Part shown: positions 5,001 through 20,955 of the stretch, piece by piece
Position numbering within the stretch: the stretch's first letter is position 1
How the letters are laid out: every line of letters begins with the position of its first letter
Assembly: GCA_963741945.1 (NCBI GenBank)
Contig: CAVUKA010000001.1
Span: forward strand, 64,001 to 128,000
Direction of reading: 5' to 3'
DNA: 64,000 nt
Source: an uncultured Gemmatimonadales bacterium
GTDB taxonomy: Bacteria > Gemmatimonadota > Gemmatimonadetes > Longimicrobiales > RSA9
Translations under genes and position numbers: made by a program
Notes under the pieces: generated by a model
What the model saw: only the letters and a program-made list of their open reading frames with translations
Told to the model about the DNA's origin: nothing
Databases searched by the model: none

Positions 5001-5341
5001 TGCTTCGGCACGCCGCCGCCCGCCGGCATGACGTACACCTGCTCGTCGCCGTCGTACTGGCCGGTGAACGCGATCCAGCGGCCGTCCGGGGAGTACTTCG
5101 CGAACAGCTCCTGGCCCGGGTGCGCGGTGAGGCGCACGGCCGTGCCACCGTTCGCGCCGGCGCTCCAGAGGTCTCCCGCGTACGTGAAGACCACGTGGTC
5201 GCCCTGGATATCGGGGAAGCGGAGCAGCTTGGTCTGCGCCGCCAGTGAGCTCGCGGCGCCGAGCACCAGAAGCGCCGCCACGAGAAGCGGAGTCGCAGCG
5301 CCCCGGGGGCCCACGGCTCCGAACCGGTTCGACCTCATCAT
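2021..5341 (-). CDS. Tricorn protease homolog (S41), secreted
   Basis: Signal peptide, LLRFPDI start, PD40 beta-propeller repeats, PDZ, DDRGNGGG and catalytic SASDGD motif; ATG at 5341 with GGAGA RBS. Confidence 0.95.
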   Translation of the reverse strand: MMRSNRFGAVGPRGAATPLLVAALLVLGAASSLAAQTKLLRFPDIQGDHVVFTYAGDLWSAGANGGTAVRLTAHPGQELFAKYSPDGRWIAFTGQYDGDEQVYVMPAGGGVPKQLTYYPATGPLPPRWGYDNQVYGWTPDGKGILFRSMRDSWDLANQHLYVVSLDGGLPQQLPMPKAGAGTLSPDGKSVFYSPLFRDFRAWKRYSGGWAEDLWTFDLASHEAKNLTDDVRTDRDPMWIGGRLYFDSDRTGTLNLYSMNPDGSDLKRLTSSTRWDVRWPSASADGQIVYEMAGELHVFDTGSSADRKLDITVPDDGVAWRPVHENVSRWIEDFGLAPKGQRAVFIARGDLFTAPIEHGATRNLTNSSTSHEKGAAWSPDGRRIAFISDRSGEEELYLVNQDGSGQPEQLTSDGDVMRYGPQWAPDGKRLSFSDARGRLWVLDLGTRKSTLVARDSSGQMSDQSWSKDGRWLAFSLSDAAGYRSLYIWGLGDAAPRRVTSDLTNDYEPVFGADGRYLYFFSDREYAPQISQNEWNFATTKSTGIFALALRKDVPAPFPPQSDEVDVASEDASSGKDGSATPDRNEAPTDVRIDFDGLADRIAPVPVEPDNYASLSAVEGKLVYVRTPAFFYGRSSGEEPALLTFDLKDRKSSTLAEGVRGYALSPDGTKLLARQGRGYTLYDVAKGESSKKSVATDGLEADIVPKQEWNQIYDEVWRRFRDFFYVANMNGYDWKALREQYRPLLQYVGDRSDLDYVLNEMIAELSNSHTYISGGDHDLPDRADVALPGARFELDPAAGRYRVAEILPGDNAEPEYRSPLTQVGVDARVGDYVLAIDGQQLMAPDNPYRLLRNRADHPVTLTLNSRPTMDGAREVAFEPRTAESKLIYYDWVKRNRERVARMTEGRVGYMHLPDMGADGIREFVKWYYPQIRKQGFIIDDRGNGGGNISSMVIERLSKELLASGYSRNNDYPSTYPRGPVFYGSLVALLDETSASDGDIFPAMFKQAGLGPLIGKRSWGGVTGITNHGTLIDGGTVNVPEFGFIGVDGSWIIEGHGVDPDIVVENDPKAVLEGRDPQLERAVQEVLEDMKAHPKHLPARPTPPDRTGH

Positions 5342-5538
5342 CGGTTCTCCTGTGATTCGTGCGTCCGGCTGTGCGCAGCCGGTTCCGTCAATCTGGAGCC
5401 CTGCGCGCCGATGGTCCAGCGAAGAGCTCAACCGCGCGGGCGGAGACGGGAACGCCTCCGGGGGGATGCCCGCGCCGGGAGGATGTACGTCGGCCGATGC
5501 CGGATGTTCCAGCGCTCGTTCCAGGCCTCGGCACGCAT

Positions 5539-5583
5539 GTGCGCCTCACTCGCGTGCGCCTCACGCGCGTGCGGCTCACCCGC
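5539..5583. repeat. 15-bp tandem repeat x3 overlapping the pqiC stop codon
   Basis: gtgcgcctcactcgc/gtgcgcctcacgcgc/gtgcggctcacccgc. Confidence 0.7.
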
Positions 5584-6241
5584 CGACCGGCGGCGCCTCC
5601 GGGAGTGCGCTCACGACCATGTCGGCAAGGCGGGCGAGGGCCGCGCTCATGGCGTGCGCCACATCGGCCGCCGAGGAAGAGGCGGTGTCCACTTCGATGT
5701 GTGCATCGCGCGCGAGGAGGCTGCGCTGGGAGGCGTCGTCGACGATGGACCAGCGACCATCCAGGACCACGGTGCCGCCGGGACTGGCGGCGAACCGCTC
5801 CAGGGTGACGACGAGGAGCCGCATGTCCCCCGGCGGATCCGGCTGGCCGGGGAGCGCCACGCTGCCATCGGGGAGGCGGGCGGCCAGGTCGAAGGCGAGC
5901 GTCCGCCGGACCACGACGGCGAGGCCGGCGGGCCAGCGGACGGTGCCATCCACCTCGAGCCTGTTCTCGGCCGTGATCCGCACCAGCGCCGCGCGGTCCA
6001 GCCCGGGGGGCAGGGTGATCCGCCCCACCGCCAGCGGAGCGCTGGTCGCGGCGGGCGCGGCGCTGCGGGGCGAGATGGTGCTGAGGTCGACATAGCGCGT
6101 GGCGGGGCTGGACGCGCACCCGACCATGCCGAACGCGAGGAGAAGCAGGGGAAGACCGCGGGCCGCCGGGTGAGGCCAGCGGGGCGATGAACGTGGGGAA
6201 CGGCGTCGTCGCACGACCGGGGTGTGGAATCGAAGAGTCAC
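5576..6241 (-). CDS. pqiC: PqiC-family lipoprotein (ABC_trans_aux)
   Basis: Lipobox-like MVGC, then ASSPATRYVDL, LDR..LV, RWPAGL, GTVVLDGRWSI; follows pqiB with a 4-bp overlap. Confidence 0.85.
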   Translation of the reverse strand: MTLRFHTPVVRRRRSPRSSPRWPHPAARGLPLLLLAFGMVGCASSPATRYVDLSTISPRSAAPAATSAPLAVGRITLPPGLDRAALVRITAENRLEVDGTVRWPAGLAVVVRRTLAFDLAARLPDGSVALPGQPDPPGDMRLLVVTLERFAASPGGTVVLDGRWSIVDDASQRSLLARDAHIEVDTASSSAADVAHAMSAALARLADMVVSALPEAPPVGG

Positions 6242-7989
6242 GGTCCTGACCTCCCCTGTATCAGCGCTTCGGGGTGACGATCGAGGTAATCGGTGAGGGA
6301 GCGCAGGGAGCGGGCGGCGCGGGTCATCTCGTCGATCAGGTCCTGGAGATTGTGCTGGTCGCGCAGTGAGCCGCCGGAGAGCCCCTGGACCGCGTCGGCC
6401 GTGGAAGCCAGGTCGCTCATGGCCTGTCGGAGGTCGGAGAGCGCCGGCTGGAGCTGGCGGCGGGCGTCGGCGGTGAGCGTATCCGCGTTGGCCATGAGCC
6501 GGTCCAGGTGTTCCAGGGTCTGATTCAGCTCCGGCGATCGGACCAACGTGTCGAGCCCCGCGGTGAGGTTGCGCAGATTGCGCCCGATGGTCCGGATCGG
6601 GAGGGCGGCCACGGCGTCGGCCGCGCGACTGACCGACGACAGCGCGCTCTGGATTCCCCCGCCCGCGATGGCCGGGATCCCTGGCGGCTGCTGCTGCCGG
6701 TCGAGCCTCCGGCCCCGCTCGTCGGTCATCACCAGCGACGCCTGCTCGCCACCGAGCACGAGCCCGGCCTGCGCCAGCTGGGCGCGCATCCCGTGCCGGA
6801 CCAGCTGGTCTACCACGTCATAGAGCGGCCGGGGCGAATCGCCGGGGCCGCGCGGCGCGAGCCCGAACCGTTCCGGATACAGGTCGAGGATCACGGGCGT
6901 GCTGACCACCCCGCGATCCGGCCGCACGCGGAGCTGCACATCCGCCACTTCGCCCACGCGGATCCCGCGCAGTGTCACCGCCGCGCCCGGCTCCAGCCCG
7001 CCGACGGAGCCGGGGAAGTCGGCCGCGAAGCGGACCGGGCGTCCGGCCAGAGGCGAGCGCGCGTCCGTGGCGCTGGCGTAGAGCCGGTACGCGGAATCCC
7101 GCGTGCCCGCAGCGGACCGGGCGGCCCCCGGCTCCGCAGTCGACGCGCCCGCCGCGCCGGGGGACGGCGACCCGGCGGTGTCGGTGAACGTGTCGAACGC
7201 GACACAGCCGTTGAGGAGCCGGGGGATCGGCGGGAAGTGGACGTCCAGTCCGCCCCCGCCGGTGGACACGTCCAGGCCGCTGCAGCGCCAGAAGCGCGAC
7301 TGCGGCTGGACCAGCGTATCGAACGGCGGCCGGACCAGCACATGGAAGCGGACCTCGCCTGCGGACGGCCCCAGGGAGAGACCGAGCACGCGGCCCGCTT
7401 CAAGGCCGTGATAGATGACCTGCGCTCCACGGCCGATCCCGTGGGCGCGCGCGTCCACCAGCGTGACGGTGCGGCCCGGCTCGACATGGGCGTCGGGGGG
7501 CGGTGAAGTCAGACCCGTGAAGTGGTGGGTGGGCTCCCCCGCGCCGGGCTCCATGACCAGGTACGGTCCGGAGAGGAGGCTGGACAGGTCGCCGCTCAGA
7601 AGGCTGGGGCTCTGGATCCAGAAGCGCGTACCCGTGCGCAGCGCTTCCTGCATGCCATCATCCATTGCGAGGTGCATCACCACGCCGTTCAGCGAGTCCC
7701 CCAGCTCCACGGAAGAGACCTGGCCTACCTGCAGCCCGCGGTAGCGGACCGCCGTCGCCCCTTTCCCCGAGATCCCGTGCGCCGTCGGGAAGGTCACGGT
7801 CACGTTCGGGCCGCCCCCGAACACCGCCTTGAACCCCAGGTACCCCGCGACGAGCAGCGCGGCCAGCGGCACCGCCCAGATCCATCCTCGCCAGGACGAC
7901 TGCTGGATGCGCGCCCACGGCGGTCCCGTCTCGTTCTCGGCAGCCTCGCGGTCGGGGGCGTCGCGGTCGGGGGCGTCGCGGTCGGTCAT
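6238..7989 (-). CDS. pqiB: PqiB-family intermembrane transport protein (three MCE domains plus helical needle)
   Basis: WIWAVP TM, VRYRGLQVGQV, TRFW, SLLSGPY, VTLRGIRVGEV, C-terminal LDRHPEALIQGR. Confidence 0.92.
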   Translation of the reverse strand: MTDRDAPDRDAPDREAAENETGPPWARIQQSSWRGWIWAVPLAALLVAGYLGFKAVFGGGPNVTVTFPTAHGISGKGATAVRYRGLQVGQVSSVELGDSLNGVVMHLAMDDGMQEALRTGTRFWIQSPSLLSGDLSSLLSGPYLVMEPGAGEPTHHFTGLTSPPPDAHVEPGRTVTLVDARAHGIGRGAQVIYHGLEAGRVLGLSLGPSAGEVRFHVLVRPPFDTLVQPQSRFWRCSGLDVSTGGGGLDVHFPPIPRLLNGCVAFDTFTDTAGSPSPGAAGASTAEPGAARSAAGTRDSAYRLYASATDARSPLAGRPVRFAADFPGSVGGLEPGAAVTLRGIRVGEVADVQLRVRPDRGVVSTPVILDLYPERFGLAPRGPGDSPRPLYDVVDQLVRHGMRAQLAQAGLVLGGEQASLVMTDERGRRLDRQQQPPGIPAIAGGGIQSALSSVSRAADAVAALPIRTIGRNLRNLTAGLDTLVRSPELNQTLEHLDRLMANADTLTADARRQLQPALSDLRQAMSDLASTADAVQGLSGGSLRDQHNLQDLIDEMTRAARSLRSLTDYLDRHPEALIQGRSGP

Positions 7990-9245
7990 GTCGTGCTGCG
8001 GAGAGCCAGCCGTGTCCGGGCGTGTGTGGTGGTGGCGGCGCCGAGCCTTCCTTCCGCGGCATCCCAGAGCAGGCGCGTGTCGAACAGCCGGGCGGCCATC
8101 ATGGTGAACACCACGACCAGCGTGAACGGCACCGCGGCGATGTCGATGTGCACCAGGGCGGCGCCGGGGAAGGAGAGCAGCGGGATCGAGAACGCCTCGA
8201 TGAGCGGGTCGGTGGTGGACCAGCGACCGATGCCGTGGATCGTGCGGTGGATGTGCGTCTGGCGGCGCAGGTTCTCGGGGTGTGGGCTTCGCACGCGGAA
8301 GAGCAGCCAGGTCAGCCCCACCAGCTTCAGGAACGGCACGAGGATGCTGGCGATGATGATGATCACGGCCAGATACCAGAACCCGGCCTGGAACAGCTCT
8401 CGAACCCCGATGATGATCGTCCGATGCTTAACCCCGGTGGGCTGCATGGTGTAGCTCATCGGGAAATAGTACGAGGGGAAATAGAAGATGTAGCCGGCGG
8501 CCACGAGGGCGGCCGTGCGCGTGAGGGCGTTCAACTTCCGGATCCGCAGGCGCCGGCCGCACCGCGGACAGGGTTTCCCTTCCGCGGAGGCGGGGAGCAC
8601 GAGCATGCAGGCATCGCAGCCGAGCGCGTTTCCGTGCTCGGGCGCCTCGCGGTCCGGCTGAATGGCCTCCCAGACAGTGTGGTTAGTCACCACGCGGTTC
8701 AATACCAGGGAGAGCACGCCGGCGCCGGCGAGGCACCAACCGCCCGGCTCCACGTGGGCGGTGAGCTGCTCGGCCGTCCGCATGTAGATGACGAAGCCGG
8801 CCACGATCATGACCTCGGGCATGGCCCAGAGCCGGATGTTGTCGGCGTAGCGGTAGAGCCGCCCGAGCCAGCCGGGCCTCCAGCGCGTGCGTACGGCCGT
8901 GAGCACGAAGGTCAGCAGCGTGGCGCGTGCCACCGGGAGGAACATGACGAAGGCCGCGAGGATGAGGGCCAGCACGGGCCAGCCGTCGCCCCAGACGCCC
9001 ATGATCCCGGAGACGATCCAGGCCTTGTGCGTCCGTCCCAGTGCGGACGCAGACATGACGGGAAAGAGGTTGGCGAGGAGGAGGAGCACGAGCAGGGCCG
9101 CGGACCAGGCCAGACTCAGGGACAGGGTGAGGGACCGGTTGCGATCCAGGATCTGATCGCAGCGGAGGCACCTGGCCTCGGCTCCGGCCTCCACGACCGG
9201 GATACGCTGTATGGCTCCGCAACCCGAACACGCGACCGTCGACAC
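7986..9245 (-). CDS. pqiA: PqiA-family inner membrane protein (duplicated domain with CxxC motifs)
   Basis: CSGC..CLRC and CDAC..CPRC motifs, ANLFPVM, WAMPEV, ASILVPFLK, IGRWS, FDTRLLWD. Confidence 0.93.
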   Translation of the reverse strand: MSTVACSGCGAIQRIPVVEAGAEARCLRCDQILDRNRSLTLSLSLAWSAALLVLLLLANLFPVMSASALGRTHKAWIVSGIMGVWGDGWPVLALILAAFVMFLPVARATLLTFVLTAVRTRWRPGWLGRLYRYADNIRLWAMPEVMIVAGFVIYMRTAEQLTAHVEPGGWCLAGAGVLSLVLNRVVTNHTVWEAIQPDREAPEHGNALGCDACMLVLPASAEGKPCPRCGRRLRIRKLNALTRTAALVAAGYIFYFPSYYFPMSYTMQPTGVKHRTIIIGVRELFQAGFWYLAVIIIIASILVPFLKLVGLTWLLFRVRSPHPENLRRQTHIHRTIHGIGRWSTTDPLIEAFSIPLLSFPGAALVHIDIAAVPFTLVVVFTMMAARLFDTRLLWDAAEGRLGAATTTHARTRLALRSTT

Positions 9246-9339: not shown

Positions 9340-10347
9340 TCAGGCGGCCGGTTCGTCCTCCGGATGCACGAGGAGCACGGGAAGGCTCGCGGCCCGGATG
9401 ACCTTGTCACTGACGCTGCCCAGGATCAAGCGACGCACGCCGCCCCGGCCGCGCGTGGCCATGGCCACCAGGTCCGCTCCCGCGCTGGCGGCAGCGTCGA
9501 GGATGCCCTCGGCCACGGGTCCCACCCATACGAGCGGCTCCGCCACGGCGACGCCCTGCTCCCGGAGCCGCGCGGAAACGGACTCGAGGTATTCCCCGGC
9601 GGTGCGTCGTGCAGCGTTCACCTGCACCTCCGCCTCTTCCGCCATCTCCGGCATGTACGGCGACGCCACAGGCAGGGTAGGCGCGGTGACGCGGAAGGGA
9701 AGGATCTCGGCCTCCATGACCCGGGCGAGAGCGACGGCTGGAGGCAGGATGGCCTCCGACAGCGGGGAGCCATCGAGTGGCACGAGAAAGCGCCCGATCT
9801 TGGTCGAGCCGGCGGCCGCGACGCTCTGCGCTGCGCCGCCCCCTGCCCCGGCACCCGCCGCCTCCCCGGGGCGGACCAGCAGGATCGGCGTGCTCGACGT
9901 GCGGACCAGGCGATCCGCAACGCTGCCGAGCCACGCACGTTCGATGGGTCCTCTTCCGTGCGTGGACATGACCACGATACCCGGATCCGCTTCCCCGATT
10001 CGACGCGTGAGCTGGGCTTCGGCTGCGCCTTCCAGGACCACCGTGTCGACCTTGTCGATCCCGGCATCGCGAAGCCGCTGCTCGACGCGGTCGAGGTACG
10101 CGGCCCTGTCGCGGAGCAGCGATTCGCGGAGCGCGGCGGTCGAGCCGGTCGTGTCGGCGGGGATCTCCATGCCAATGTCCCAGGCGACGGGTGGCGTGGC
10201 TATGCCTCCGGCGGCCAGCGGAGCGGCGTCGACCACGGTGACGAGCTCCAGCGCGCCGTCGCAGGACCGCGCAATGGCCGTGGCCAGCGGGAGCGCGGCT
10301 TCCGCGAACCCGGATCCATCCAGTGGCACCAGAACGCGCTCGAACAT
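9340..10347 (-). CDS. Universal stress protein, tandem USP domains
   Basis: MFERVLVPLDGS...MSTHGRG..RAWLGSVADRLVR, second domain LVPLDGS...MATRGRGG.RRLILGSVSDKVIR; RBS GGGAGG; true start 10347, not 11334. Confidence 0.93.
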   Translation of the reverse strand: MFERVLVPLDGSGFAEAALPLATAIARSCDGALELVTVVDAAPLAAGGIATPPVAWDIGMEIPADTTGSTAALRESLLRDRAAYLDRVEQRLRDAGIDKVDTVVLEGAAEAQLTRRIGEADPGIVVMSTHGRGPIERAWLGSVADRLVRTSSTPILLVRPGEAAGAGAGGGAAQSVAAAGSTKIGRFLVPLDGSPLSEAILPPAVALARVMEAEILPFRVTAPTLPVASPYMPEMAEEAEVQVNAARRTAGEYLESVSARLREQGVAVAEPLVWVGPVAEGILDAAASAGADLVAMATRGRGGVRRLILGSVSDKVIRAASLPVLLVHPEDEPAA

Positions 10348-10412: not shown

Positions 10413-11201
10413 TCAGGCCGTGCCGTTCTCCCGGTCCGTCGGCGGTCCCGGAGGTCGCGGAGCTCCCGGGTCCGCACAGGCGACCCGGCCGATCTCGGGG
10501 CCCCACACGAGGGTTCGTACCTGGCCGGCGGCCTCGCTCCACGCGCCGTGCCAGCGGGCGCCGCCGGGGACCTGGACGATGAAGTCGTCGGCCCCGATCT
10601 CTTCGACCACCACGGCGCGGGTATCGAGCCGAAGCCCCGTTCGCAGCGCCTTCAGGGCGGCTTCCTTCGCCGCCCACGTGAGGTTGGCGAAAAGCGGCCG
10701 CTCGCCCGGCGCCGCCGCGCGCACGCGGGCCGCTTCCGCGGGCGTGAAATAGTCGTCGATGAAGCGCTCGCTTCGCGGCTCGATGGTCTCGAGGTCCACG
10801 CCCAGCTCGCCGCCCCCGAGCCGGGCAGCGGCCAACCCGTTTCCGCCGCTGTGGCTGATGGACACCGCCATGGCAATGAACTCGTCGGCAGCGACGATAC
10901 GGGGTTCCGGAGCGCCGTCGTCCGCCGGGAGCACCTCCACCATGTCGGGCCCGACCTCCCGCCCCGCCGCGGACAGCGCCAGGGCCACGGCGCGCTTCGC
11001 CGCCCAGCGCCCGATCCTCCAGTCGGCTCGCCGTCCGGGCACGCGGTACGCCATGAGCCTGGCCAGCTCCGCATCGGTCAGCCAGTCGCTCGCTTCCGGC
11101 ACCTCCGAGGCGGCCACCAGCACTTCGTGCACGCGCGGCGCGGGGTGCCCGCGCCGGCGCTGGTGGTGGGCGGTGCGCGGCCGGGGCGGCAAAGGTGTCA
11201 T
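10413..11201 (-). CDS. 4'-phosphopantetheinyl transferase (Sfp-like)
   Basis: WLTDAE, GRWAAK, SISHS, GVDLE, WAAKEAALK motifs; ATG overlaps the PKS stop (ATGA). Confidence 0.9.
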   Translation of the reverse strand: MTPLPPRPRTAHHQRRRGHPAPRVHEVLVAASEVPEASDWLTDAELARLMAYRVPGRRADWRIGRWAAKRAVALALSAAGREVGPDMVEVLPADDGAPEPRIVAADEFIAMAVSISHSGGNGLAAARLGGGELGVDLETIEPRSERFIDDYFTPAEAARVRAAAPGERPLFANLTWAAKEAALKALRTGLRLDTRAVVVEEIGADDFIVQVPGGARWHGAWSEAAGQVRTLVWGPEIGRVACADPGAPRPPGPPTDRENGTA

Positions 11202-14200
11202 GCCTTCTGTCGGAGCTCCGGGAACGGGCGCCCTTCCATGGTGGTGGGGAGGGCGGCGGTGCGGTAGCCACGCACCGAAGCCAGCACGGTGCCATCCTCC
11301 GCCACCACGTCCACGTCGTAGCCGGCTTCGGCATCGCCGCCGGCGAGCAGCGCCATGGAGCCTCCGGCGTCGCCCCGGGCCGGGTCGATCAGGTCGACGC
11401 GTTCCACGCTGTACGGCAGCCCCATGCGGGCCGCGTCCGCGATCTCGGCCAGGCCGGCGGTCTGGAACGCCAGCTCGACGAGGCGAGGCGCCGTGAGCAG
11501 CGTCCGCTCCGCGGGGACGTGGTTCGGCGGCAGCGCTTCGGCGAGCCGCCCGGCCAGGAGCGCGCCGGAGCGCCACGCCCGGCCCAGGACCCGGTACGCT
11601 GGGCCATGGAAATAGACATCGTAGATGGCGTCCGCGCCGATCCCGGGCCCGCTCCCGGGAAGATCGCGGCGGTGCGGAGCGTCGGGCGCGCTGGCGGTGA
11701 GCCTCACACGCGCCGTGAAATGCGTGGTCACTTCGGGCTCGGGGCGGCCGTGCAGCGTGCGGGCGCCGAGCAGCGCGCACTCCGCCACCACCTCGTCGCC
11801 ATCCTCGCCGTAGCGCACCCGGACGCTCACGGTGCGCGGCTCATCGCGGTAGAACTTGAACGGCGCGAGGAACGTGACGTCCTCCACGGCCGCGACCCGC
11901 AGCGCCGGGAACGGCAGCGCGGCGGCCTCCGCCATGGCTTCCATGCCCATGACGCCGGGGAGCACCGGGGTGCCGTCGATCCGGTGGTCGTCCAGGAACG
12001 GCTGGGCTTTCGGATCGAGCCGGGTTTCGACCAGGAGCCCGTCGTTCAGGCCGAGCTCCACCACCCGCTCGGCGACGACACCACCGGACCCGTCCGCGTC
12101 CGCCCGTACGCCGCCGCCGGGCGCCCGCGCATCGAGCATGGCGCCCAGCGCGCCGGCGATCACGACTTCGCCGCGGGTGCCGGCGGACAGCTCGCGCCGG
12201 ACGACGGGAACCCCCGCCGCGGGCTCGAGCATGTCAATGCCCGCGGCCTTCAGGATGGTCGGGATCGAGCCGCGGGTGGCCATGCCGATGCCTCCCCACG
12301 CGGTCCAGTCGATGGCTATGCCGCGGGAGGCCGACCTCCGACTGCGGAACGATGAGACCGCCTTGCAGAGCAGGTCGTTGGCCGCGCTGTAGTCGGCCTG
12401 GCCCGCGTTGCCGAAGCGGCCGGCGATGGAGCTGAAGACGACGGCGGCGCCCAGCGGGGCGTCGCCGAGCCCCGCCAGCAGGTTGAACCAGCCGTCGGTC
12501 TTCACGTCGAACACGAGGTCGAACTCTTCCGGCGACTTCTCCGGGATCGACCGGCTGACTTCGAGTCCCGCCGCGTGCACCAGAACGTCCAGCCTGCCCC
12601 GGGCGGCCACCACCTCGCGCATCACGGCCGCCACGGCATCGGCGTCGCGCAGGTCGACGGCGCGCCAGTGCGCGGTGCCACCGGCGGCCTCCACGGCGCG
12701 GATGGCGGCGAGTGCCGCGGCCGCCCGCTCGAGGCGGGCCAGCTGCTTCTCCACCAGCGCCGGCGTCGCCCGCTCGCCGCTGTCCTGGAGCCGCGCGAAG
12801 ATCTCCCGCTTCAGCCCGTCCCGATCGGAAGCGAGCCGCGCCAGGTCCGGGTCGGCCGGGTCGGGCTCCGGCGTCAGGTCCAGGAGCCAGAACTCGCCGC
12901 CCGTCGGGGCCAGGTCCGCGAGAATGGCCGACGTGATGCTCCCCGCCGCGCCCGTGACCACCCAGGCGGCGTCGGCGCCCGGCAGATCGTGCCCCGGCTC
13001 CACGGAACGCGTGTCGAGGCCGACCGTCCAGCGCCTGCCTCCGGCGTGGCCGACCTCCACCACGCCCGGGTCCCGCAGGGTCTCCTCGATGAGCAGGTCC
13101 GCCACTTCGGCCGTCCTCCGGCCCGGGGCGAAGTCCACCGCCTTCACGAGCGCGGCCGGCCGCTCGCGGGCGAACGACTTCACGAGCCCGGTGACGGCGC
13201 CACCGAGGACATCGGCGGCCCCTTCGGCGTCGTACCCGTGGCGGCCGCCGAGACGCGTGGCCGAAACCACGAACCCGCCCGCCGCGCCCACGTCGTCATA
13301 GAGCGAGCGGAGCAGTGCGTAGAGCGCTTTCACGCGGAGCTGGAGCGCCTCCCGCCGTTGCCGGGGCTCGAGCAGCGCGGCGTCGTCGAGGATGTCGAGC
13401 GCCGGAAGCCAGTACACCCCCCGGATCGGGCCTTCCGCCCGCCACCCAGCCAGCCGCTTCGCCAGCGCATCCGGGCTCGCCGCGTCCTCGAGCACCAGCG
13501 GCGCGACGCCGCGTTTCTCCAGCCGGCCCACGAGCGCTTTCGCGACCCCGCCGGTGTCGGGCATCACGACCACGCGGGCTCCCTTGCCCAGCGAGACGCC
13601 CGTTTCCCGGAAGAACGCGATGGGCGGACGCAGTCGCGGGACCGGAACGCGGCGCGGAACCGCCTGCGCGGCCGCCATGTCACTCGCCATGTCACCCGCC
13701 ATGTCACCCGCCATGGCGCGCGGGGCCACGTCGAGGCCGGGGGTCGGCGGCGTGTCCGGAGGCGCGGACCCGGGCTGCGGGGCTCCACCGGCCGCGGCGA
13801 TCGATGGTGCTTCGCCGGCGGCGGGCGCGAGGTCCGGTCGCTTCTCGTACACGAACTCGATGGCCCGCTTCAGCGTGGGGTAGTCCCGGAGCGCCAGCTC
13901 CTCGTCCCGCTCGATGCCGTACTCCTCGCGGATCGCCGCGAACATCTCCGCCTGCTTCACGGTGTCGATGCCCAGGTCCGCTTCCAGGTCCAGGTCCAGC
14001 TCCAGCATGTCCGGCGGGTAGCCGGTCTGCTCCGCCACGATCCCAAGGACGCGCGCGCGCACGGGGTCGCCGGGCGCTGCGCCCGGAGCGGGGGCTGCCG
14101 CGGCCGGGGCGGGTGGAGGGGAGGTGGTCGCGCCGGCGGCGGGTGCGAGGTCCGGGCGCTTCTCGTACACGAACTCGATGGCCCGCTTCAGCGTGGGGTA

Positions 14201-17200
14201 GTCCCGCAACGCCAGCTCCTCGTCCCGCTCGATGGCGTACTCCTCGCGGATCGCCGCGAACATCTCCGCCTGCTTCACGGTGTCGATGCCCAGGTCCGCT
14301 TCCAGGTCCAGGTCCAGCTCCAGCATGTCCGGCGGGTAGCCGGTCTGCTCCGCCACGATCCCCAGCACGCGCTCCCGGATCGGATCCGCGACCGCCACGG
14401 CCGCGGTGCCCGGGACAGCAGTCGTGTCCGGGGCCAGGCCCGCGCCGGGCTGCGGGCGCGCACCCGGGGCCGCGGCCGGCGCGCTCGGCACGGACGCCGT
14501 CGCCGGCAGGGGCATTGCCCCGGGGGCGGCCGGTGTCCCGGCCGGGGCGGGGGCGCCGTTGCGCAGCCGGAGCACGCGCTTCACCACTTCCAGCTCGCCC
14601 GGCCGCCCGCCAGCGATGTCCGCCAGCCACCGATCCCAGGCCGCGCGGTCGGCGATGCGGTGGTGGAATCCCACGCTGCCGGGCGCCCGGCGCGCGCCGT
14701 CGGGCGGCGGGGTCCAACGCAGGAGGCTCATGGCGATCTGCGAGCCGAAACCGGCGCCCAGCCGCAGCGCGTAGGTGACCGGCCGAGCGCCGCCGCGGGA
14801 CAGGTTGAGCTCGCCGAGCTCGGGATCGACGTCGCGGAAATTGGCCACCGGGGGGATCACGCCCGTCTCGAGCATGCGCACGGCCAGAGCGTCCTCGATG
14901 CCCACAGCCATCGGGTGGCCCGTGTGACCCTTGGTATTGGCGACGATGATGCGGTCCACCGCGTCGCCGAAGACGCTCCGCAGCGCCACGACTTCCGCCG
15001 ACGCGCTCCCGCCGCGCGCAGGCGTGTACGTCTCGTGGGAGACGAACACGGTGTCGCCGGCGATCTGGCGGCGGTCGATCCCCCATTCTCGCTCGGCATC
15101 GGAAACCAGGCGCTCCATCACGGCGGCGATGTGCTGCACGTCCAGGCGGCTGCCATGGAACGCGCTGTTCGCCACCGCGGTGCCGAGGATCTCACAGATC
15201 GGCGACAGCCCCCGCTCCGCGGCGGCGTCCAGCGCCTCCACCACGAGCGCCGCGCCACCCATCCCGATGATGAGACCATGACGGCGCCGATCAAACGGGA
15301 GCGCAGCGTCCTCCAGGCGCTCGTCGGTGGCCGCGGCTCCGGAGGCCAGGAACCCGCTGCCGAACCACGGAAGGAGGGCGTCGGTGGTGATGTCGTCCGC
15401 GGACAGGACAATGACGCGACGGCAGCGCCCGGCGGCGATCCAGTCCCGGGCGAGCGCCGTGGCCTGGGTGCCGCTGGCGCACGCTGCGTTGGTGCCGATG
15501 TTGGGGCCGCGCGCAACGATGTACTCGGCGAACTGGGCGTGGCCCATGCTGAGCACCTGGAACAGGAAGCGGCGGTCGAAGCGGAAGGGGTTGGCTGCCA
15601 GCTCGGTCTCCAGGGCGACGATCCGGGCGTCCACCTCCTCGATGGCAGACGCTTCCCCTCCCGCCGGCAGCTTCGCTCGCAGGGATCGGAGCTCCTCCAG
15701 CCGCTCGCGCCGGGCACGGTCCTCGTGGTAGCCCTCGATCACGCGCGCGAAGGAATCGTAGCCGGGGAAAGCGGACGCGAAGATGACACCGGTGTCGTCC
15801 CGCATCGATTCCGGGAGCGCCCAGCCGTCCGGGAGCTTCGATCCGGTGGTCGTGGTCTTGTGCCGCAGCACGAGCGGAATTCCGGCATCGCGCAGCGCGT
15901 CGAGCCCCGCGGCGATGGCGAGGCGGGTGACCCGGTCCAATGCGCCGAGCCGATCCTCCGGGAAGCCGTACTCCTCCACCAGGTCCACTGCCCCGCCGCG
16001 GCCAGCGAGCTTGATCACGTCCGCAGGGTCGTCGATGGTCTCGAAGCGCGCGTCCCCGTTCGACCCTTTCACCAGCCGGGTGATCCGGTGCCCGGCCATG
16101 GCTTCACGCAGCCCCTGCGGCACTGCGCCGATCAGCGCCTCTCCCGCGAGGATCCGCTCCAGGTTCCGCTCATCGAACACCCACTCCCCACCGGGGAGCC
16201 CGAGCGCCGCGCCCGTGATCCCCACCCGCACCGGGCGCGCGGCCCGGCCACCCGCCCAGGTCTCGAAGCTGCGCTCGAGGAAGTCGGAGAACATCCGGCC
16301 CAGCGCCAGGTGCCGGTCCTCGTCCCGTGTGGCGCCGGCGATGCGGGAACGCGTGGCTGACAGCGACGGGTCGGGCGCGGGGGTCGGCCAGGGCGTGTCG
16401 GGCGTGTCGGCCGTATCGCGCATGTGGGGCGCGGACAGCGCGGCGGCGGCGGGAGTCGCGGGCTGTGCCAGGCTGTGGGCGCGCGGCGATGGCGCGAGCG
16501 TCCGGGCCGCCCCGTGACCGGCGGCGTAGAGGCCGCAGAGCGCGCGGTTGAACGAGACGACGTCACCCGTCCTGGGGTGATTCGTGAAGAGGGTGGTCAC
16601 GTCCTCGCGGCCGCCGAGAACGTCTTCGGCGAAGCCGTAGAGGACGCGCTTCGGGCCCATCTCGATGAACACGCGGGCGCCGGCGTCGTACAGCGTCTCC
16701 AGCCCCCTGACGAACTGGACGGGGGAGCCGACCTGCCGGGCGAGGATGTCGCGCATGCGCTCCACCACGTCGCCCTCCGCCGGGTAGAACTGGCCATCCA
16801 CGTTGGCGACGATGGGGCGGTCGGGCGGCCGGAGCGACAGCGAGCTCAGCACCTGAACGAGCGGCTCCGAGGCCTGGGCCACGATCTCCGTGTGGAACGC
16901 GTGGCTGACGGGGAGCGGCTGCGCGCGCATGCCGGCTCCCCGCAGTGCTTCCATGGCCGCGGTCACAGCCGCGGTCGCGCCGCCGATGACGCACTCCTTC
17001 GTGCTGTTCAGGTTGGCAATGACCACATAGCCGTCCACGCCTCCGATCACGTCACGCACGCGCTCCACGTCGCCGAACACGGCAGCCATGAGCCCGTTGT
17101 CCTCCATGGCGAGGTGCGTCATGGCGTCCCCGCGCGCGGAGACGGCCCTGAGCGCGTCGGCGAACGACATGCCCGCGGCCGCGACGAGGGCGCCATACTC

Positions 17201-19270
17201 GCCGAGGCTGTGCCCCATGACCATGTCGGGCTCGATGCCGTACGCGACCATCAGCCGGGCCAGCGACGTGTCCACGGCCAGCATCGCGGGCTGGGTGATG
17301 GCCGTCTGCTTCAGCGCCTCCTCTGCGGCCGCCAGTGCAGTACCGTCCCCGGCGTCCACGAAGATCCGGGACGTGAGCGTGCTCCCGATGAGCGGCGCCA
17401 TGACCCCGTCCGCCTCGTCGAACGTGTCCGCCACCACCGGCTCCGTGTCGCGCAGCCCCCGCAGCATGTTGGCGTACTGGGAGCCCTGCCCCGTGAACAG
17501 GAACGCGACTCTCCCGGGCGCGCCCCGGCCCAGGAACACGCCCTTGTTCCGGAGCGCGCGCCAGCGGCCGGCATCGCCCGTGTCGAGCGCGGCGAGGGTC
17601 CTGGTGGCCAGGTCCGCCAGCTCGGCGGCGTCGCCGTAGTCGATGGCGAGGCGGACCGGCGCGTCGAGGTCGGCGCGGGCGGGCGGTGCGGGCGGCGGCG
17701 CGTCGCCGGCCTCCGCGGCCGCCTTCACCGCTTCCAGGCGACGCGCGATGTCCGCTTCCGACGCCCCGCCGATCACGAGCGCGCCCCGAAGGGGAGCCTT
17801 GAGCGGCATGGCCCCGGGTACGTGCGCCCGCGGCGCGGGTGAGGGCACGTACTCCTCCAGCACCACGTGGAAGTTCGTCCCGCCGAAGCCGAACGCGCTC
17901 ACGCCCGCCCTGCGCGGGCCGCCATCGGAGCGATGCGGCCAGTCGCGCATCTCGGCCACCACGGCCATCGTGGCGCGGCCGAAATCGATGCCGGGGTTCG
18001 GGCGCGCGAAGTTGATGCTGGCGGGGACAGCGCCATGGTGGAGCGAGAGGGCGGCCTTGAGCATCCCAACGGCGCCCGCAGCCCCCTTCAGGTGCCCGAT
18101 GTTCGACTTCACCGAGCCGAGCATGAGGGCGCCCGGCGCCAGCGCGGCCCCGGCGAACACCTCATCCATGCTCGCGACTTCCACGACGTCGCCCACGCGC
18201 GTCGACGTGCCGTGCCCCTCGATCAGGTCGCCCGCCGCGGGCACCAGGCCGGCGTTGGCCCACGCGCGCTCCACCGCCAGCTGCTGGCCGATGGGGTTCG
18301 GCGCCGTGATCCCCTTCCCTCGCCCGTCGCTGGAGCCACCCACCCCGCGGATGACGGCGTAGACGCGGTCGCCATCTCGCTCGGCGTCGGCCAGCCGCTT
18401 CAGCAGGAAGATCACCGCACCCTCGCCCATCACGAAGCCATCGGCCCCCTCCGCGTACGGCCGGGAGCCGGTGGCGCTGAGCGCGCCGATCTTGCAGAAC
18501 TTCACGAATGCGGACGGGCTCATGTTCGCGTCCGCGCCGCCCGCCAGGACCGCGTCGAAATCGCCATTCTCGAGACCGTCGATGGCGGCATAGAGGGCGG
18601 CCATGGCGGAGGCGCACGCGGCGTCCGTGACGAAATTGGGGCCGCGGAAGTCGTACAGCGCGGCAATGCGGCCGGCGGTGATGTTGGACAGCTCCCCCGG
18701 CATCGTGTCCTCGGTGATATCCGGGATCCGCCGGTTCACACCGGCCCGGAGCTCTTCGAGGACCGCGGCGCGCACGTCCTCCGGCAGGGCGCGGTAGGCG
18801 GGCGCCGCCCGGAGCTCCTCGGCCACTTCGGGGAAGAGGATGCGGGCGCCCGTCAGGAGGTGGTAGTCGCCACCCATCGCGTTGCCGAGAATCACGGCCG
18901 TGCGGTCGCCATCGAGCGGGCGATGGGGGTGTCCATAGTCGAGCAGCGCCTGCCTCGCCGCGGCGATGGCGTACTTCTGCGTGGGATCCATGGACGCCGC
19001 CACTTTCGGCGGGATCGGCATGCGCCACCCGAGCGGGTTCCACTCGTAGTCGGCGACCCACCCGCCGATCTTCGAGTACGTCCGGTCCGGCGCGCGCGGG
19101 TCCGGGTCGAAGTAGAGGTCCGCGTTCCAGCGCTCGCGGGGAACGTCGCGGATGCTGTTGCGTCCTTCCTTCAGGTTCTTCCAGAACGCGGCCACGTCGG
19201 GCGCGTCCGGGAGGACCGCCCCGACTCCCACGATGGCCACCGACCTGCTGCGCGCGCTGCTGTCCATCAT
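11198..19270 (-). CDS. Iterative type I PKS/FAS, PfaA-like, KS-AT-KS-ACP-ACP-KR-DH
   Basis: KS1 DAACAS/EGHGTST/KSNIGHLK; AT GQGSQY/GHSLGEY/VSHAFH; KS2 NAACAS/SHETYT/TKGHTGHP; two ACPs LEADLGIDTVKQAE; KR VTGAAGSIT/FSSIAGRFGNAGQADYSAAN; DH DHRIDGTPVLPG. Confidence 0.93.
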   Translation of the reverse strand: MMDSSARSRSVAIVGVGAVLPDAPDVAAFWKNLKEGRNSIRDVPRERWNADLYFDPDPRAPDRTYSKIGGWVADYEWNPLGWRMPIPPKVAASMDPTQKYAIAAARQALLDYGHPHRPLDGDRTAVILGNAMGGDYHLLTGARILFPEVAEELRAAPAYRALPEDVRAAVLEELRAGVNRRIPDITEDTMPGELSNITAGRIAALYDFRGPNFVTDAACASAMAALYAAIDGLENGDFDAVLAGGADANMSPSAFVKFCKIGALSATGSRPYAEGADGFVMGEGAVIFLLKRLADAERDGDRVYAVIRGVGGSSDGRGKGITAPNPIGQQLAVERAWANAGLVPAAGDLIEGHGTSTRVGDVVEVASMDEVFAGAALAPGALMLGSVKSNIGHLKGAAGAVGMLKAALSLHHGAVPASINFARPNPGIDFGRATMAVVAEMRDWPHRSDGGPRRAGVSAFGFGGTNFHVVLEEYVPSPAPRAHVPGAMPLKAPLRGALVIGGASEADIARRLEAVKAAAEAGDAPPPAPPARADLDAPVRLAIDYGDAAELADLATRTLAALDTGDAGRWRALRNKGVFLGRGAPGRVAFLFTGQGSQYANMLRGLRDTEPVVADTFDEADGVMAPLIGSTLTSRIFVDAGDGTALAAAEEALKQTAITQPAMLAVDTSLARLMVAYGIEPDMVMGHSLGEYGALVAAAGMSFADALRAVSARGDAMTHLAMEDNGLMAAVFGDVERVRDVIGGVDGYVVIANLNSTKECVIGGATAAVTAAMEALRGAGMRAQPLPVSHAFHTEIVAQASEPLVQVLSSLSLRPPDRPIVANVDGQFYPAEGDVVERMRDILARQVGSPVQFVRGLETLYDAGARVFIEMGPKRVLYGFAEDVLGGREDVTTLFTNHPRTGDVVSFNRALCGLYAAGHGAARTLAPSPRAHSLAQPATPAAAALSAPHMRDTADTPDTPWPTPAPDPSLSATRSRIAGATRDEDRHLALGRMFSDFLERSFETWAGGRAARPVRVGITGAALGLPGGEWVFDERNLERILAGEALIGAVPQGLREAMAGHRITRLVKGSNGDARFETIDDPADVIKLAGRGGAVDLVEEYGFPEDRLGALDRVTRLAIAAGLDALRDAGIPLVLRHKTTTTGSKLPDGWALPESMRDDTGVIFASAFPGYDSFARVIEGYHEDRARRERLEELRSLRAKLPAGGEASAIEEVDARIVALETELAANPFRFDRRFLFQVLSMGHAQFAEYIVARGPNIGTNAACASGTQATALARDWIAAGRCRRVIVLSADDITTDALLPWFGSGFLASGAAATDERLEDAALPFDRRRHGLIIGMGGAALVVEALDAAAERGLSPICEILGTAVANSAFHGSRLDVQHIAAVMERLVSDAEREWGIDRRQIAGDTVFVSHETYTPARGGSASAEVVALRSVFGDAVDRIIVANTKGHTGHPMAVGIEDALAVRMLETGVIPPVANFRDVDPELGELNLSRGGARPVTYALRLGAGFGSQIAMSLLRWTPPPDGARRAPGSVGFHHRIADRAAWDRWLADIAGGRPGELEVVKRVLRLRNGAPAPAGTPAAPGAMPLPATASVPSAPAAAPGARPQPGAGLAPDTTAVPGTAAVAVADPIRERVLGIVAEQTGYPPDMLELDLDLEADLGIDTVKQAEMFAAIREEYAIERDEELALRDYPTLKRAIEFVYEKRPDLAPAAGATTSPPPAPAAAAPAPGAAPGDPVRARVLGIVAEQTGYPPDMLELDLDLEADLGIDTVKQAEMFAAIREEYGIERDEELALRDYPTLKRAIEFVYEKRPDLAPAAGEAPSIAAAGGAPQPGSAPPDTPPTPGLDVAPRAMAGDMAGDMASDMAAAQAVPRRVPVPRLRPPIAFFRETGVSLGKGARVVVMPDTGGVAKALVGRLEKRGVAPLVLEDAASPDALAKRLAGWRAEGPIRGVYWLPALDILDDAALLEPRQRREALQLRVKALYALLRSLYDDVGAAGGFVVSATRLGGRHGYDAEGAADVLGGAVTGLVKSFARERPAALVKAVDFAPGRRTAEVADLLIEETLRDPGVVEVGHAGGRRWTVGLDTRSVEPGHDLPGADAAWVVTGAAGSITSAILADLAPTGGEFWLLDLTPEPDPADPDLARLASDRDGLKREIFARLQDSGERATPALVEKQLARLERAAAALAAIRAVEAAGGTAHWRAVDLRDADAVAAVMREVVAARGRLDVLVHAAGLEVSRSIPEKSPEEFDLVFDVKTDGWFNLLAGLGDAPLGAAVVFSSIAGRFGNAGQADYSAANDLLCKAVSSFRSRRSASRGIAIDWTAWGGIGMATRGSIPTILKAAGIDMLEPAAGVPVVRRELSAGTRGEVVIAGALGAMLDARAPGGGVRADADGSGGVVAERVVELGLNDGLLVETRLDPKAQPFLDDHRIDGTPVLPGVMGMEAMAEAAALPFPALRVAAVEDVTFLAPFKFYRDEPRTVSVRVRYGEDGDEVVAECALLGARTLHGRPEPEVTTHFTARVRLTASAPDAPHRRDLPGSGPGIGADAIYDVYFHGPAYRVLGRAWRSGALLAGRLAEALPPNHVPAERTLLTAPRLVELAFQTAGLAEIADAARMGLPYSVERVDLIDPARGDAGGSMALLAGGDAEAGYDVDVVAEDGTVLASVRGYRTAALPTTMEGRPFPELRQKA
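13814..14386 (-). repeat. Intragenic near-identical duplication of the ACP domain (period 318 bp)
   Basis: Two ~255-bp copies; block 13918-14044 is identical to 14236-14362. Confidence 0.9.
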
Positions 19271-20955
19271 GCGGCTCCGTTCGTGTCACGGCCGTACAGT
19301 GCGTCGGCCACCTCGTCCATGTCCGCCACGAGTCCCGCCTGCGCCGCGTGGATCGGCCCGACGCGGAGCGACTGCTGGAAGCCCGCGAGATCCGGGAGCG
19401 GCACGCCATCGGCGCCCACGGCCCAGCGGATTCCCTCCGCCACGACCGCCGCCGCGGCCTCCCGCGCGTAGACACGGCTGGCCGCCGTGAGGGCGTCCGG
19501 TGCCAGGCGACGATCGGCTTTGGCCGGCAGCTCGCCCGCCGCGGCCCGCGCGGCCCGGCGAGTCAGCGCCGCCGCCGCTTCGACGCGGGCGATGAGGTCG
19601 CCGAACCGCAACAGGAGGTGCTGACTCCGCGTGAGGCGCTGGAGACGGGCGCGCTCCAGCAGCTCCGCCAGGGCGTGGGCGGCCAGAGCGACCGTGTCGG
19701 CCCCCACGCCGGGCGCCACGGCGGACACCTGCTCCAGCTTCACCGCCTCATCGTGGTAGTGCTGCCCGCGCGTCTTCAGATGCTGCTGCCAGCGGTCCCG
19801 TGCAATGGTCATCTCCATGATCTCCGACGTGCCCTCGTAGATCGTGGTGATGCGTACGTCGCGGCGGATCTTCTCCACCTCGTACTCCCGCACGTAGCCG
19901 TAGCCGCCCAGCGCCTGCATCGCCGCGTCCGCCGCCGCGTTCCCCGCTTCCGTGGCGATGTACTTGGCAATGGCGCCCTCCGTGTTCAGCGCGCCTTCGC
20001 CCGCGTCGATCCGCACCGCCGTCTCCTCGATGCACGCCCGCCCGGCTTCCAGACGGCAGGCGTGCGGCACGATCAGCTTGTGCGTGTAGCCCTGTTTCTC
20101 GGCAAGGGGACCGCCCGCCTGGATGCGCGTCCTCGAGTACGCGATGGCCCGATCCAGCGCCGCCCAGCCGGCGCCCAGGCCAAACGCGGCCACCATGAGC
20201 CGCGTGTAGCCGAACACCAGCTGCGCCTGTACGAGCCCCTGCCCCTCCACGCCGCCCACCAGGTCGGACGCCGGGACATACACGTCGTCGAAGGAAAGCG
20301 CGGCCGTATTGCTCGCCCGGATCCCGTGCTTGTCCTCCGGCTTCCCGTGGTCGAGCCCGTCCACCCCCTTCTCCAGCACGAACCACGTCGGCCCGCCCGG
20401 GGCAAGGGCGAGAACGCTGTAGAGGTCGGCGAACCCGCCGTTGCTGATCCACATCTTGGCGCCGTTGATGCGATAGCCGACCACCGCGCCGCCCTCCTCC
20501 ACCCGCTTCGCCACCGTCCGGAGCGCGCCCAGATCGCTTCCCGCTTCCGGCTCCGTGGCGCCGTACGCCATCAGCAATCCCTCTTCCGCGATCCGCCCCA
20601 GCCAGCGCGCCTTCTGCTCTTCCGTCCCACCCCAGAGGATCGGATCACTGCCCAGGAACGTGGCCAGAACCCCCGTCGCCACGCCGAGATCGATCGCCGA
20701 CAGCAGCTCGCACACGCGGTACACGTCGAACGCGCCCCCATCCATCCCGCCGTATGCCTCGGGGATGAAGAGGAGCTGCACGCCCAGCTCCCCGCACATG
20801 GCGCGGATCGTCTCCTCCGGGAACTCGTGGCTGGCGTCCAGCTCGAGCAGCCGCTCCCTGGGCAGGTGCTCGGCCGCGAAATCGCGGATCGAGGCGAGGA
20901 TCAGCTCCAGCGTCTCCCGGTCCAGACCGGCGTTCGGCGTCGCAACGATGGTCAT
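19267..20955 (-). CDS. Acyl-CoA dehydrogenase with C-terminal extension
   Basis: TEPEAGSD, INGAKMWISNG, KHGIRASNT, QALGGYGY..EY, IYEGTSEI; stop overlaps the PKS start. Confidence 0.95.
   Translation of the reverse strand: MTIVATPNAGLDRETLELILASIRDFAAEHLPRERLLELDASHEFPEETIRAMCGELGVQLLFIPEAYGGMDGGAFDVYRVCELLSAIDLGVATGVLATFLGSDPILWGGTEEQKARWLGRIAEEGLLMAYGATEPEAGSDLGALRTVAKRVEEGGAVVGYRINGAKMWISNGGFADLYSVLALAPGGPTWFVLEKGVDGLDHGKPEDKHGIRASNTAALSFDDVYVPASDLVGGVEGQGLVQAQLVFGYTRLMVAAFGLGAGWAALDRAIAYSRTRIQAGGPLAEKQGYTHKLIVPHACRLEAGRACIEETAVRIDAGEGALNTEGAIAKYIATEAGNAAADAAMQALGGYGYVREYEVEKIRRDVRITTIYEGTSEIMEMTIARDRWQQHLKTRGQHYHDEAVKLEQVSAVAPGVGADTVALAAHALAELLERARLQRLTRSQHLLLRFGDLIARVEAAAALTRRAARAAAGELPAKADRRLAPDALTAASRVYAREAAAAVVAEGIRWAVGADGVPLPDLAGFQQSLRVGPIHAAQAGLVADMDEVADALYGRDTNGAA

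Follow-up and report, generated by a model that had tools for sequence, protein, structure and literature searches.

To our knowledge, textbooks and annotation rules treat the serine of helix II as the defining residue of the carriers of fatty acid, polyketide, and non-ribosomal peptide synthesis. The acyl carrier proteins (ACPs) of PfaA, a component of the polyunsaturated fatty acid (PUFA) synthases, carry this serine in the motif LGIDSIK. Here we describe a PfaA-like synthase gene whose two tandem ACP domains have a threonine at this position, together with the phosphopantetheinyl transferase (PPTase) gene that follows it. Both genes lie in a 64,000-nt stretch of contig CAVUKA010000001.1, from the assembly GCA_963741945.1 of an uncultured Gemmatimonadales bacterium. 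This whole stretch is what we call the window, and all coordinates are positions within it.

The closest described systems are the Type R secondary lipid synthases (Shulse & Allen 2011, PMC3098273), which consist of one pfaA homologue with the domain order ketosynthase (KS), malonyl acyltransferase (MAT), chain length factor (CLF), three to six ACPs, and ketoreductase (KR), followed by a PPTase gene. The hosts given there include Ca. Koribacter, Ca. Solibacter, Elusimicrobium, and Roseiflexus, and neither "threonine" nor "serine" occurs once in the main text of that paper. Like these clusters, the locus described here has a single pfaA homologue in the order KS, MAT, second KS or CLF, tandem ACPs, and KR, and downstream of it a PPTase gene, an open reading frame (ORF) of family PF01648 that overlaps the stop codon of the synthase. 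Unlike what the 2011 paper describes, there are only two ACPs (two to seven in the relatives), a dehydratase (DH) domain and an upstream acyl-CoA dehydrogenase-family (ACAD) gene are present that its text does not list, and the domain there called CLF keeps a Cys-His-His triad. Given this architecture, and since close relatives come from Korobacteraceae, Terriglobales, and Chloroflexota, we assign the gene cluster, by sequence, to the Type R secondary lipid synthase class. This identity with a catalogued class had gone unrecognised in an earlier, sequence-only reading of the same stretch, in which the threonines had already been pointed out.

The class itself has been known since 2011, and no description of its threonine carriers was found in the literature searched. 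From sequence comparison and predicted structures, we consider it probable that these residues are converted to Thr-O-phosphopantetheine by the PPTase of the operon, as part of an iterative PfaA-like Type R lipid or polyketide synthase.

Threonine in the carrier domains of the synthase and its relatives

The synthase gene (11198..19270, minus strand), defined by the ORF list, its translation, and the Pfam and NCBIfam profiles, is an unbroken ORF of 8 kb that encodes 2690 aa. Its Pfam domains are, in order, KS (residues 9-480), acyltransferase (AT, 590-885), a second KS (about 1000-1560), ACP, ACP, KR (2181-2326), and PS-DH (2404-2675). The sequence-only reading had held the KS, AT, KR, and DH motifs to be intact, in agreement with the Pfam domains found and with the motifs DAACAS, GHSLGE, YSAAN, and HRIDGTPVLPG that can be read in the translation. 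The best NCBIfam match of the whole protein is the PfaA model TIGR02813, at 855.7 bits under a cut-off of 1010.1, and the same model is the best match of a single ACP; NCBIfam holds no model specific to this synthase class, and the PfaA model matches only below its cut-off.

The first carrier domain, ACP 1 (residues 1626-1710; 14141..14395, minus strand), scores 35.6 bits and the second one, ACP 2 (residues 1732-1816; 13823..14077, minus strand), 38.5 bits against PF00550 (PP-binding), both above the cut-off of 20.8. Both contain the motif DLGIDTVKQAE within the common reading LEADLGIDTVKQAEMF, obtained by translating window positions 13700-14500 as well as the whole ORF. In neither of them is the conserved cofactor serine of the (D/H)S(L/I/V) motif present: the canonical serine position is taken by Thr1664 in ACP 1 and Thr1770 in ACP 2, each encoded by an ACC codon (14279..14281 and 13961..13963, respectively, minus strand), so that codons and translation agree with what the sequence-only reading had reported. 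HMMER likewise places the threonine opposite the cofactor serine in ACPs of solved structure, among them PigH (5y08) and the Thermus protein 1x3o. The 85-aa window around each threonine contains no serine, as had also been claimed, and no cysteine, the nearest serine residues being found only in the Ala/Pro linker that joins ACP 1 and ACP 2.

An AlphaFold2 (AF2) model of ACP 2, built from 41 orthologous domains, reaches a mean pLDDT of 89.2, with helices at positions 8-21, 42-56, and 72-82. In this predicted four-helix ACP fold, helix II begins exactly at the threonine, Thr42 of the model. The top Foldseek matches listed against the PDB are all ACPs, with target-normalised TM scores of 0.80-0.88, the two-domain PigH chain excepted.

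Since the two ACP copies share 252 of 273 nt (92%), and 83 of 91 aa, they represent a single observation. The sequence-only reading had cautioned that a recent duplication deprives the copies of independence; this stands within the gene and has been overtaken at the level of the family, where the trait is general, as three samples of relatives show. The first sample came from a search seeded with words of the ACP region, which returned 5127 matches. The best 120, which were inspected, are all large synthases, and threonine is found in 591 of 591 motifs, the two of this protein included. In 590 domain windows of this sample, threonine occupies the site in 100% of cases, serine reaches at most 22% in any column and amounts to 1.6% of all residues, and cysteine is absent. 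Two other threonines of the carrier are near-invariant in the same 590 domains: that of EKTGYP, 21 residues upstream of the site (98%), and that of DYPTL, 29 residues downstream (100%). Because the seed words contain the motif itself, which biases this sample, the other two were drawn with the second KS (KS2).

In the second sample, KS2 alone (residues 1000-1560) was compared with 1.84 billion cluster representatives, and the best 150 of 7960 matches, with 37-69% identity, were kept. A carrier HMM found 334 domain matches in 121 of these proteins: 313 with threonine and 12 with serine, the rest being five truncated domains and four short, degenerate pseudo-domains. Counted by protein, 115 have threonine only, three have serine only, one is truly mixed, and two are uninformative. 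For the third sample, one genome per GTDB species was scanned with two KS2 peptide patterns, yielding at least 590 confirmed loci, of which the best 80 were retained. The motif is present in 77 of them, with threonine at 277 of 277 sites, encoded by ACC (136), ACG (107), ACT (19), and ACA (15); with four codons in use, the conservation must act at the amino-acid level. The motif is missing from three loci, all of them short. Among them, L012 (G019:C3) has a run of N within its ACP repeats, and L013 (G007) stops at a contig edge. The run of N in L012 illustrates the collapse of tandem ACP repeats in metagenome assemblies, and ACP copy numbers derived from metagenome-assembled genomes (MAGs) may be underestimates.

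The best 80 loci come from Gemmatimonadota, which are the closest (67-73% identity), Acidobacteriota, which are the most numerous, Bacteroidota, Calditrichota, Verrucomicrobiota, Binatia, Actinomycetota, Myxococcota, and others. Their carriers form tandem arrays of two to seven ACPs, and of four to eight in the best 120 of the word-seeded set. No other part is as well conserved as the ACP, whose columns have a mean identity of 72%, the value being 42% in KS2 and likewise in the PPTase. The synthase itself is patchily distributed, with a KS2 match in four of the 24 genomes compared from its own family and in none of the 16 that belong to two further families of the order; this patchiness, along with closest loci in many phyla, fits horizontal spread. 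Kin among the sampled sequences are not independent of each other.

Serine does occur among the relatives. Ten of the 12 serine carriers of the second sample are well formed and share the motif G-x-D-S-[VI]-K, as in GVDSVKQAE (P0232), GVDSVKQVE (P0226), and the DSVK of five domains in P0172, most of which read DSVKVAE, while P0221 is the mixed case, with DSIK beside DTVKQAE in a single protein. Among the well-formed domains of the 334 carrier matches, no residue other than threonine or serine was found at the site: no Asp, Asn, Glu, or Ala. A midpoint-rooted KS2 tree with local supports was calculated with FastTree from 87 rows; the other 64 of the 151, the serine-bearing P0232 among them, had been left out because they covered less than 400 positions of the KS2 profile or lacked a well-formed carrier. 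P0226, P0172, and the mixed P0221 each fall within threonine clades with 100% local support, from which at least three separate changes follow. As far as the sampled sequences go, threonine is the conserved state of this synthase family, and serine a rare, recurrent alternative. The lineage-specific decay that the sequence-only reading had considered, in which homologues would carry serine, is at odds with relatives that were chosen blind to the ACP and yet overwhelmingly have threonine, with only serine ever replacing it in well-formed domains.

Five proteins (P0157, P0161, P0164, P0172, and P0174) also have a short degenerate ACP-like segment of 50-65 aa after or among their tandem ACPs. These segments keep the DLG, with Gln, Asp, Gly, or Ser-Glu in place of the D-T-V motif, and may be either decayed repeats or docking elements.

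The operon phosphopantetheinyl transferase

The PPTase gene (10413..11201, minus strand) encodes a protein of 262 aa with two PPTase-fold halves (PF01648, E 1e-18), and its ATG overlaps the stop codon of the synthase as ATGA, in keeping with the translational coupling described in the sequence-only reading. The protein scores 67.8 bits against PF01648 (cut-off 25) and 47.7 against TIGR00556 (cut-off 45.35), and among PDB chains its profile matches those of Sfp (1qr0/4mrt), EntD (7bcz), AcpS (1f80), and the human PPTase. In 20 orthologous PPTases, His117, Asp136, Glu180, and Lys184 never vary and Glu138 hardly does, in line with the catalytic pattern of the SxSH histidine, GxDxE, and W/FxxKE..K. 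The residue before the catalytic Asp is a Cys in most orthologues (LGCDLE), while this protein reads LGVDLE. The N-terminal half aligns to AcpS, where the stretch RxDWRxGRWxAK faces the AcpS motif; this stretch and a second one, EPRS..F..DYFT, are conserved and specific to the clade, neither being present in the Sfp/EntD-type PPTase that this genome encodes next to a non-ribosomal peptide synthetase (NRPS).

A PPTase was found in 38 of the best 80 loci, directly after the synthase in 14 and about 5.5 kb further on in 24. The 42 loci without it comprise 21 with less than 1 kb after the largest ORF, 18 with 1-6.5 kb downstream, and three with a broken synthase ORF. In two of those 18 (L074 and L033), the downstream space is filled by one gene of 1820-1870 aa, which in L074 encodes a multidomain acetyl-CoA carboxylase and is followed by the PPTase. 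Five of the 18 were followed into their full records: the PPTase lies just beyond the end of the locus, on the same strand, in L033, L046, and L050, and 3 kb off, on the opposite strand, in L077, whereas in L031 (Calditrichota) no PPTase was found within 5.7 kb downstream, the nearest match being possibly 11 kb past the locus end, if on the same contig.

Co-occurrence was assessed in 41 related genomes, this one included, five of which are matched by the KS2 query. A match of at least 108 bits to the PPTase is found in five of the five genomes with the synthase and in none of the 36 without it, where the matches do not exceed 40 bits; one of these 36 (G017) is flagged unpublished, and enters this count only. 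A model of the complex formed by the PPTase, CoA, Mg, and the ACP obtained a score of 0.65, against 0.02 for the best of three controls. Of solved complexes, 58 of 80 attain this mark, as do two of 110 mismatched pairs. The runs agreed in at least 88% of their contacts, and the partners had a pLDDT of at least 77. In the predicted interface Thr42 contacts Glu180, Val43 contacts Trp176, Glu138, and Arg143, and Val43, Ala46, and Glu47 between them contact Trp176, Arg143, Phe147, and Tyr151. The sequence-only reading had proposed a specialised PPTase, which gains support from the operon linkage, the co-occurrence, the intact catalytic residues, and the predicted docking of the threonine at the catalytic Glu.

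The assembly (4.09 Mb in eight contigs, 96.7% complete) contains three PF01648 matches: one of AcpS size, one beside an NRPS, and the one in the window. Among its six PF00550 matches, only the two synthase domains have threonine; the AcpP-like carrier (DLGADSLDTVE) and the three NRPS carriers (GGHS, GGNS, and GGDS) all keep the serine. The NRPS cluster, located outside the window (contig C1:921000-932000), combines these three serine carriers with its own Sfp/EntD-type PPTase. Searching the whole genome with PF00550 revealed no stand-alone ACP within the window, as the sequence-only reading had stated for the neighbourhood of the gene, and the sole AcpP-like match lies on another contig. Judged from these matches, this genome encodes as many PPTases as it has carrier sets, namely three, and since separate AcpS-like and NRPS-linked enzymes are already present, the PPTase in the window has no other evident client.

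What the threonine may carry

According to the explanation that we favour, the two domains would be working acyl carriers whose cofactor is borne by a threonine at the N-terminal end of helix II. The operon PPTase would dock on helix II, at the invariant T-V-K-Q-A-E face, its catalytic Glu would deprotonate the hydroxyl group of the threonine, and 4'-phosphopantetheine would then pass from CoA to the residue to yield Thr-O-phosphopantetheine. The resulting thiol arm would shuttle malonyl and acyl intermediates among KS, AT, KS2, KR, and DH, and probably also to the ACAD-type flavoprotein. That the threonine is actually phosphopantetheinylated, as the sequence-only reading had also suggested, is what we infer from a site that admits only hydroxyl residues, the conservation of helix II, the tandem arrays, the lack of an alternative Ser or Cys, and a co-inherited PPTase with intact chemistry. 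The hydroxyl-only pattern fits a nucleophile, because a helix cap could also be an Asp or an Asn.

For the family as a whole, with a KS2 relative in at least 590 species-level genomes and threonine read in 77 of the best 80 loci, we lean slightly towards a widespread type of megasynthase with O-(4'-phosphopantetheinyl)-threonine, installed by a co-inherited PPTase clade that would accept a secondary alcohol. As to what the threonine would be for, one may speculate that it ties priming to a dedicated PPTase and keeps it apart from AcpS and the other PPTases, or that it makes for a more stable phosphodiester.

Several points speak against threonine as a cofactor acceptor. The S36T variant of the E. 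coli ACP is described as unmodifiable and non-functional (PMC3340395), so that a secondary alcohol would be no trivial substitute, at least for AcpS. Full-text searches returned no experimental precedent for phosphopantetheine on threonine or for carriers bearing threonine, subscription journals and supplements not being covered. The one promising match was dismissed, as it concerns a KS cysteine and not an ACP. No residue change that would explain the acceptance of threonine was found in the PPTase across the 20 orthologues and the PDB matches, its catalytic motifs being ordinary. The operon partners are of the CoA type (the ACAD here, joined in Acidobacteriota by electron transfer flavoprotein (ETF) and the multidomain acetyl-CoA carboxylase), which leaves room for CoA-bound chemistry. 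The complex model is blind to the difference in reactivity between serine and threonine, and its passing may reflect no more than likeness to the solved Sfp-PCP and AcpS-ACP complexes, or their recall by the model. All the evidence is comparative or predicted.

Some of these points would also suit carriers that are never primed. The threonine domains would then be structural or docking pseudo-carriers, KS, KR, and DH would act on acyl-CoA or on AcpP in trans, and the Thr or Ser would simply cap the helix. Besides the unmodified S36T variant and the CoA-type neighbours, the AcpP with its serine elsewhere in the genome is compatible with this explanation. Nevertheless, a cap or a dead site would admit Asp, Asn, Glu, or Ala, whereas the well-formed domains have only threonine (313) or serine (10); the carriers are kept in tandem arrays and are the most conserved module of the synthase; and a catalytically intact PPTase, for which the genome offers no other evident client, is found in all five synthase-bearing genomes of the 41 compared and in none of the other 36. 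We thus regard pseudo-carriers as unlikely.

A second alternative is that the hydroxyl group bears something else, for instance an acyl group in direct O-ester linkage, a phosphate, or some other arm derived from a nucleotide, and that the PF01648 enzyme encoded next to the synthase has drifted towards that transfer. The hydroxyl-only pattern demands a modification or a nucleophile and not specifically phosphopantetheine, and the two motifs peculiar to this PPTase clade would suit such a drift. Still, the Mg-binding, CoA-binding, and base residues of Sfp-type enzymes are all conserved, the chemistry of KS, AT, KR, and DH requires a long thiol arm, and the rare revertants to serine fit the standard cofactor, so that a different group on the threonine seems quite improbable. 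The threonine might, thirdly, be a recent accident copied by ACP duplication, whether through decay in this lineage, in a pseudogene, or through an error of sequencing or assembly. The near-identity of the two copies in DNA is what speaks for this explanation, and we reject it as having a negligible chance, given an intact 8-kb ORF and threonine at every one of the 277 sites read in 77 other species-level genomes of many phyla, in four codons, as well as in 313 of the 334 carrier matches of the KS2 representatives.

If phosphopantetheine is indeed attached to these threonines, they would be the first natural exception to serine-only carrier priming and would extend the chemistry of phosphopantetheinylation. 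Priming would have a built-in orthogonality, with threonine carriers unseen by AcpS-type enzymes and reliant on their own PPTase, which would explain why these clusters are always accompanied by one. Such a pair of carrier and PPTase, without cross-talk with the host, could find use in synthetic biology, and Sfp alone might fail in the heterologous expression of these clusters, which are very common in soil bacteria. The threonine carriers also give a concrete handle on Type R, a class that has remained an orphan for 15 years.

Neighbouring genes and related systems

The gene upstream of the synthase (19267..20955, minus strand) encodes an acyl-CoA dehydrogenase-family flavoprotein of 562 aa with the Pfam ACAD N, M, and C domains, and its stop codon overlaps the synthase start as ATGA. 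An ACAD gene precedes the synthase in 74 of the 80 related loci. Its top NCBIfam match is the acryloyl-CoA reductase AcrC, with 240 bits against a cut-off of 640, followed by weaker matches to prolyl-carrier-protein dehydrogenases; based on these matches, it may plausibly act in trans as an enoyl reductase or a desaturase of the pathway.

Farther downstream of the PPTase lie genes for a tandem universal-stress protein (Usp), the 419-aa PqiA, a 583-aa protein with an MlaD domain, and a Tricorn-type protease of 1136 aa (2021-9245 and 9340-10300, minus strand, by Pfam), and upstream of the ACAD gene are those for a holin-like protein and a DUF3618 protein. Beyond ACAD, synthase, and PPTase, the flanking genes look unrelated to the pathway. 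A longer operon is seen in an Acidobacteriales MAG (L074:1360-21669), and also in L033, where an Fe-S/CCG oxidoreductase, ETF beta, ETF alpha, ACAD, the synthase, an acetyl-CoA carboxylase (1870 aa in L074), and the PPTase follow one another. The carboxylase of L074 is a eukaryote-like single chain with the order BC-BCCP-ACC_central-CT. This arrangement suggests an ETF-coupled reductase or desaturase along with a private supply of malonyl-CoA.

Within the synthase, the second KS (14591-16273, minus strand; residues 1000-1560) retains its Cys-His-His triad: Cys265 is found in all of 12 aligned sequences, and His413 and His453 in nearly all. Since the triad is kept, the domain that the 2011 paper calls a CLF is probably a second active ketosynthase.

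In comparison with other known systems, the synthase resembles PfaA of the PUFA synthases (TIGR02813) in the tandem of near-identical ACPs placed between the AT/KS and KR-DH modules, and differs from the PfaA systems in its extra KS and in the absence here of PfaB, PfaC, and PfaD partners. The closest solved sequence to the carrier is the doublet ACP of PigH (5y08, E 1.7e-10), which also comes in tandem and shows a DLG(V/I)D-x-(I/V) motif but has a serine at the aligned position. As in the priming of carriers by Sfp-type enzymes (Sfp, 1qr0/4mrt; EntD, 7bcz; AcpS-ACP, 1f80), the residues binding Mg and CoA and the base are conserved, and the predicted docking sets the acceptor residue at the catalytic Glu; unlike in these enzymes, the acceptor is a threonine and the PPTase has the AcpS-like RxDWRxGRWxAK as well as EPRS..F..DYFT. 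The S36T variant of E. coli AcpP, for its part, has the same change from serine to threonine at the cofactor site: whereas there it is described as abolishing both modification and function (PMC3340395), here it is the conserved wild-type state of a large family.

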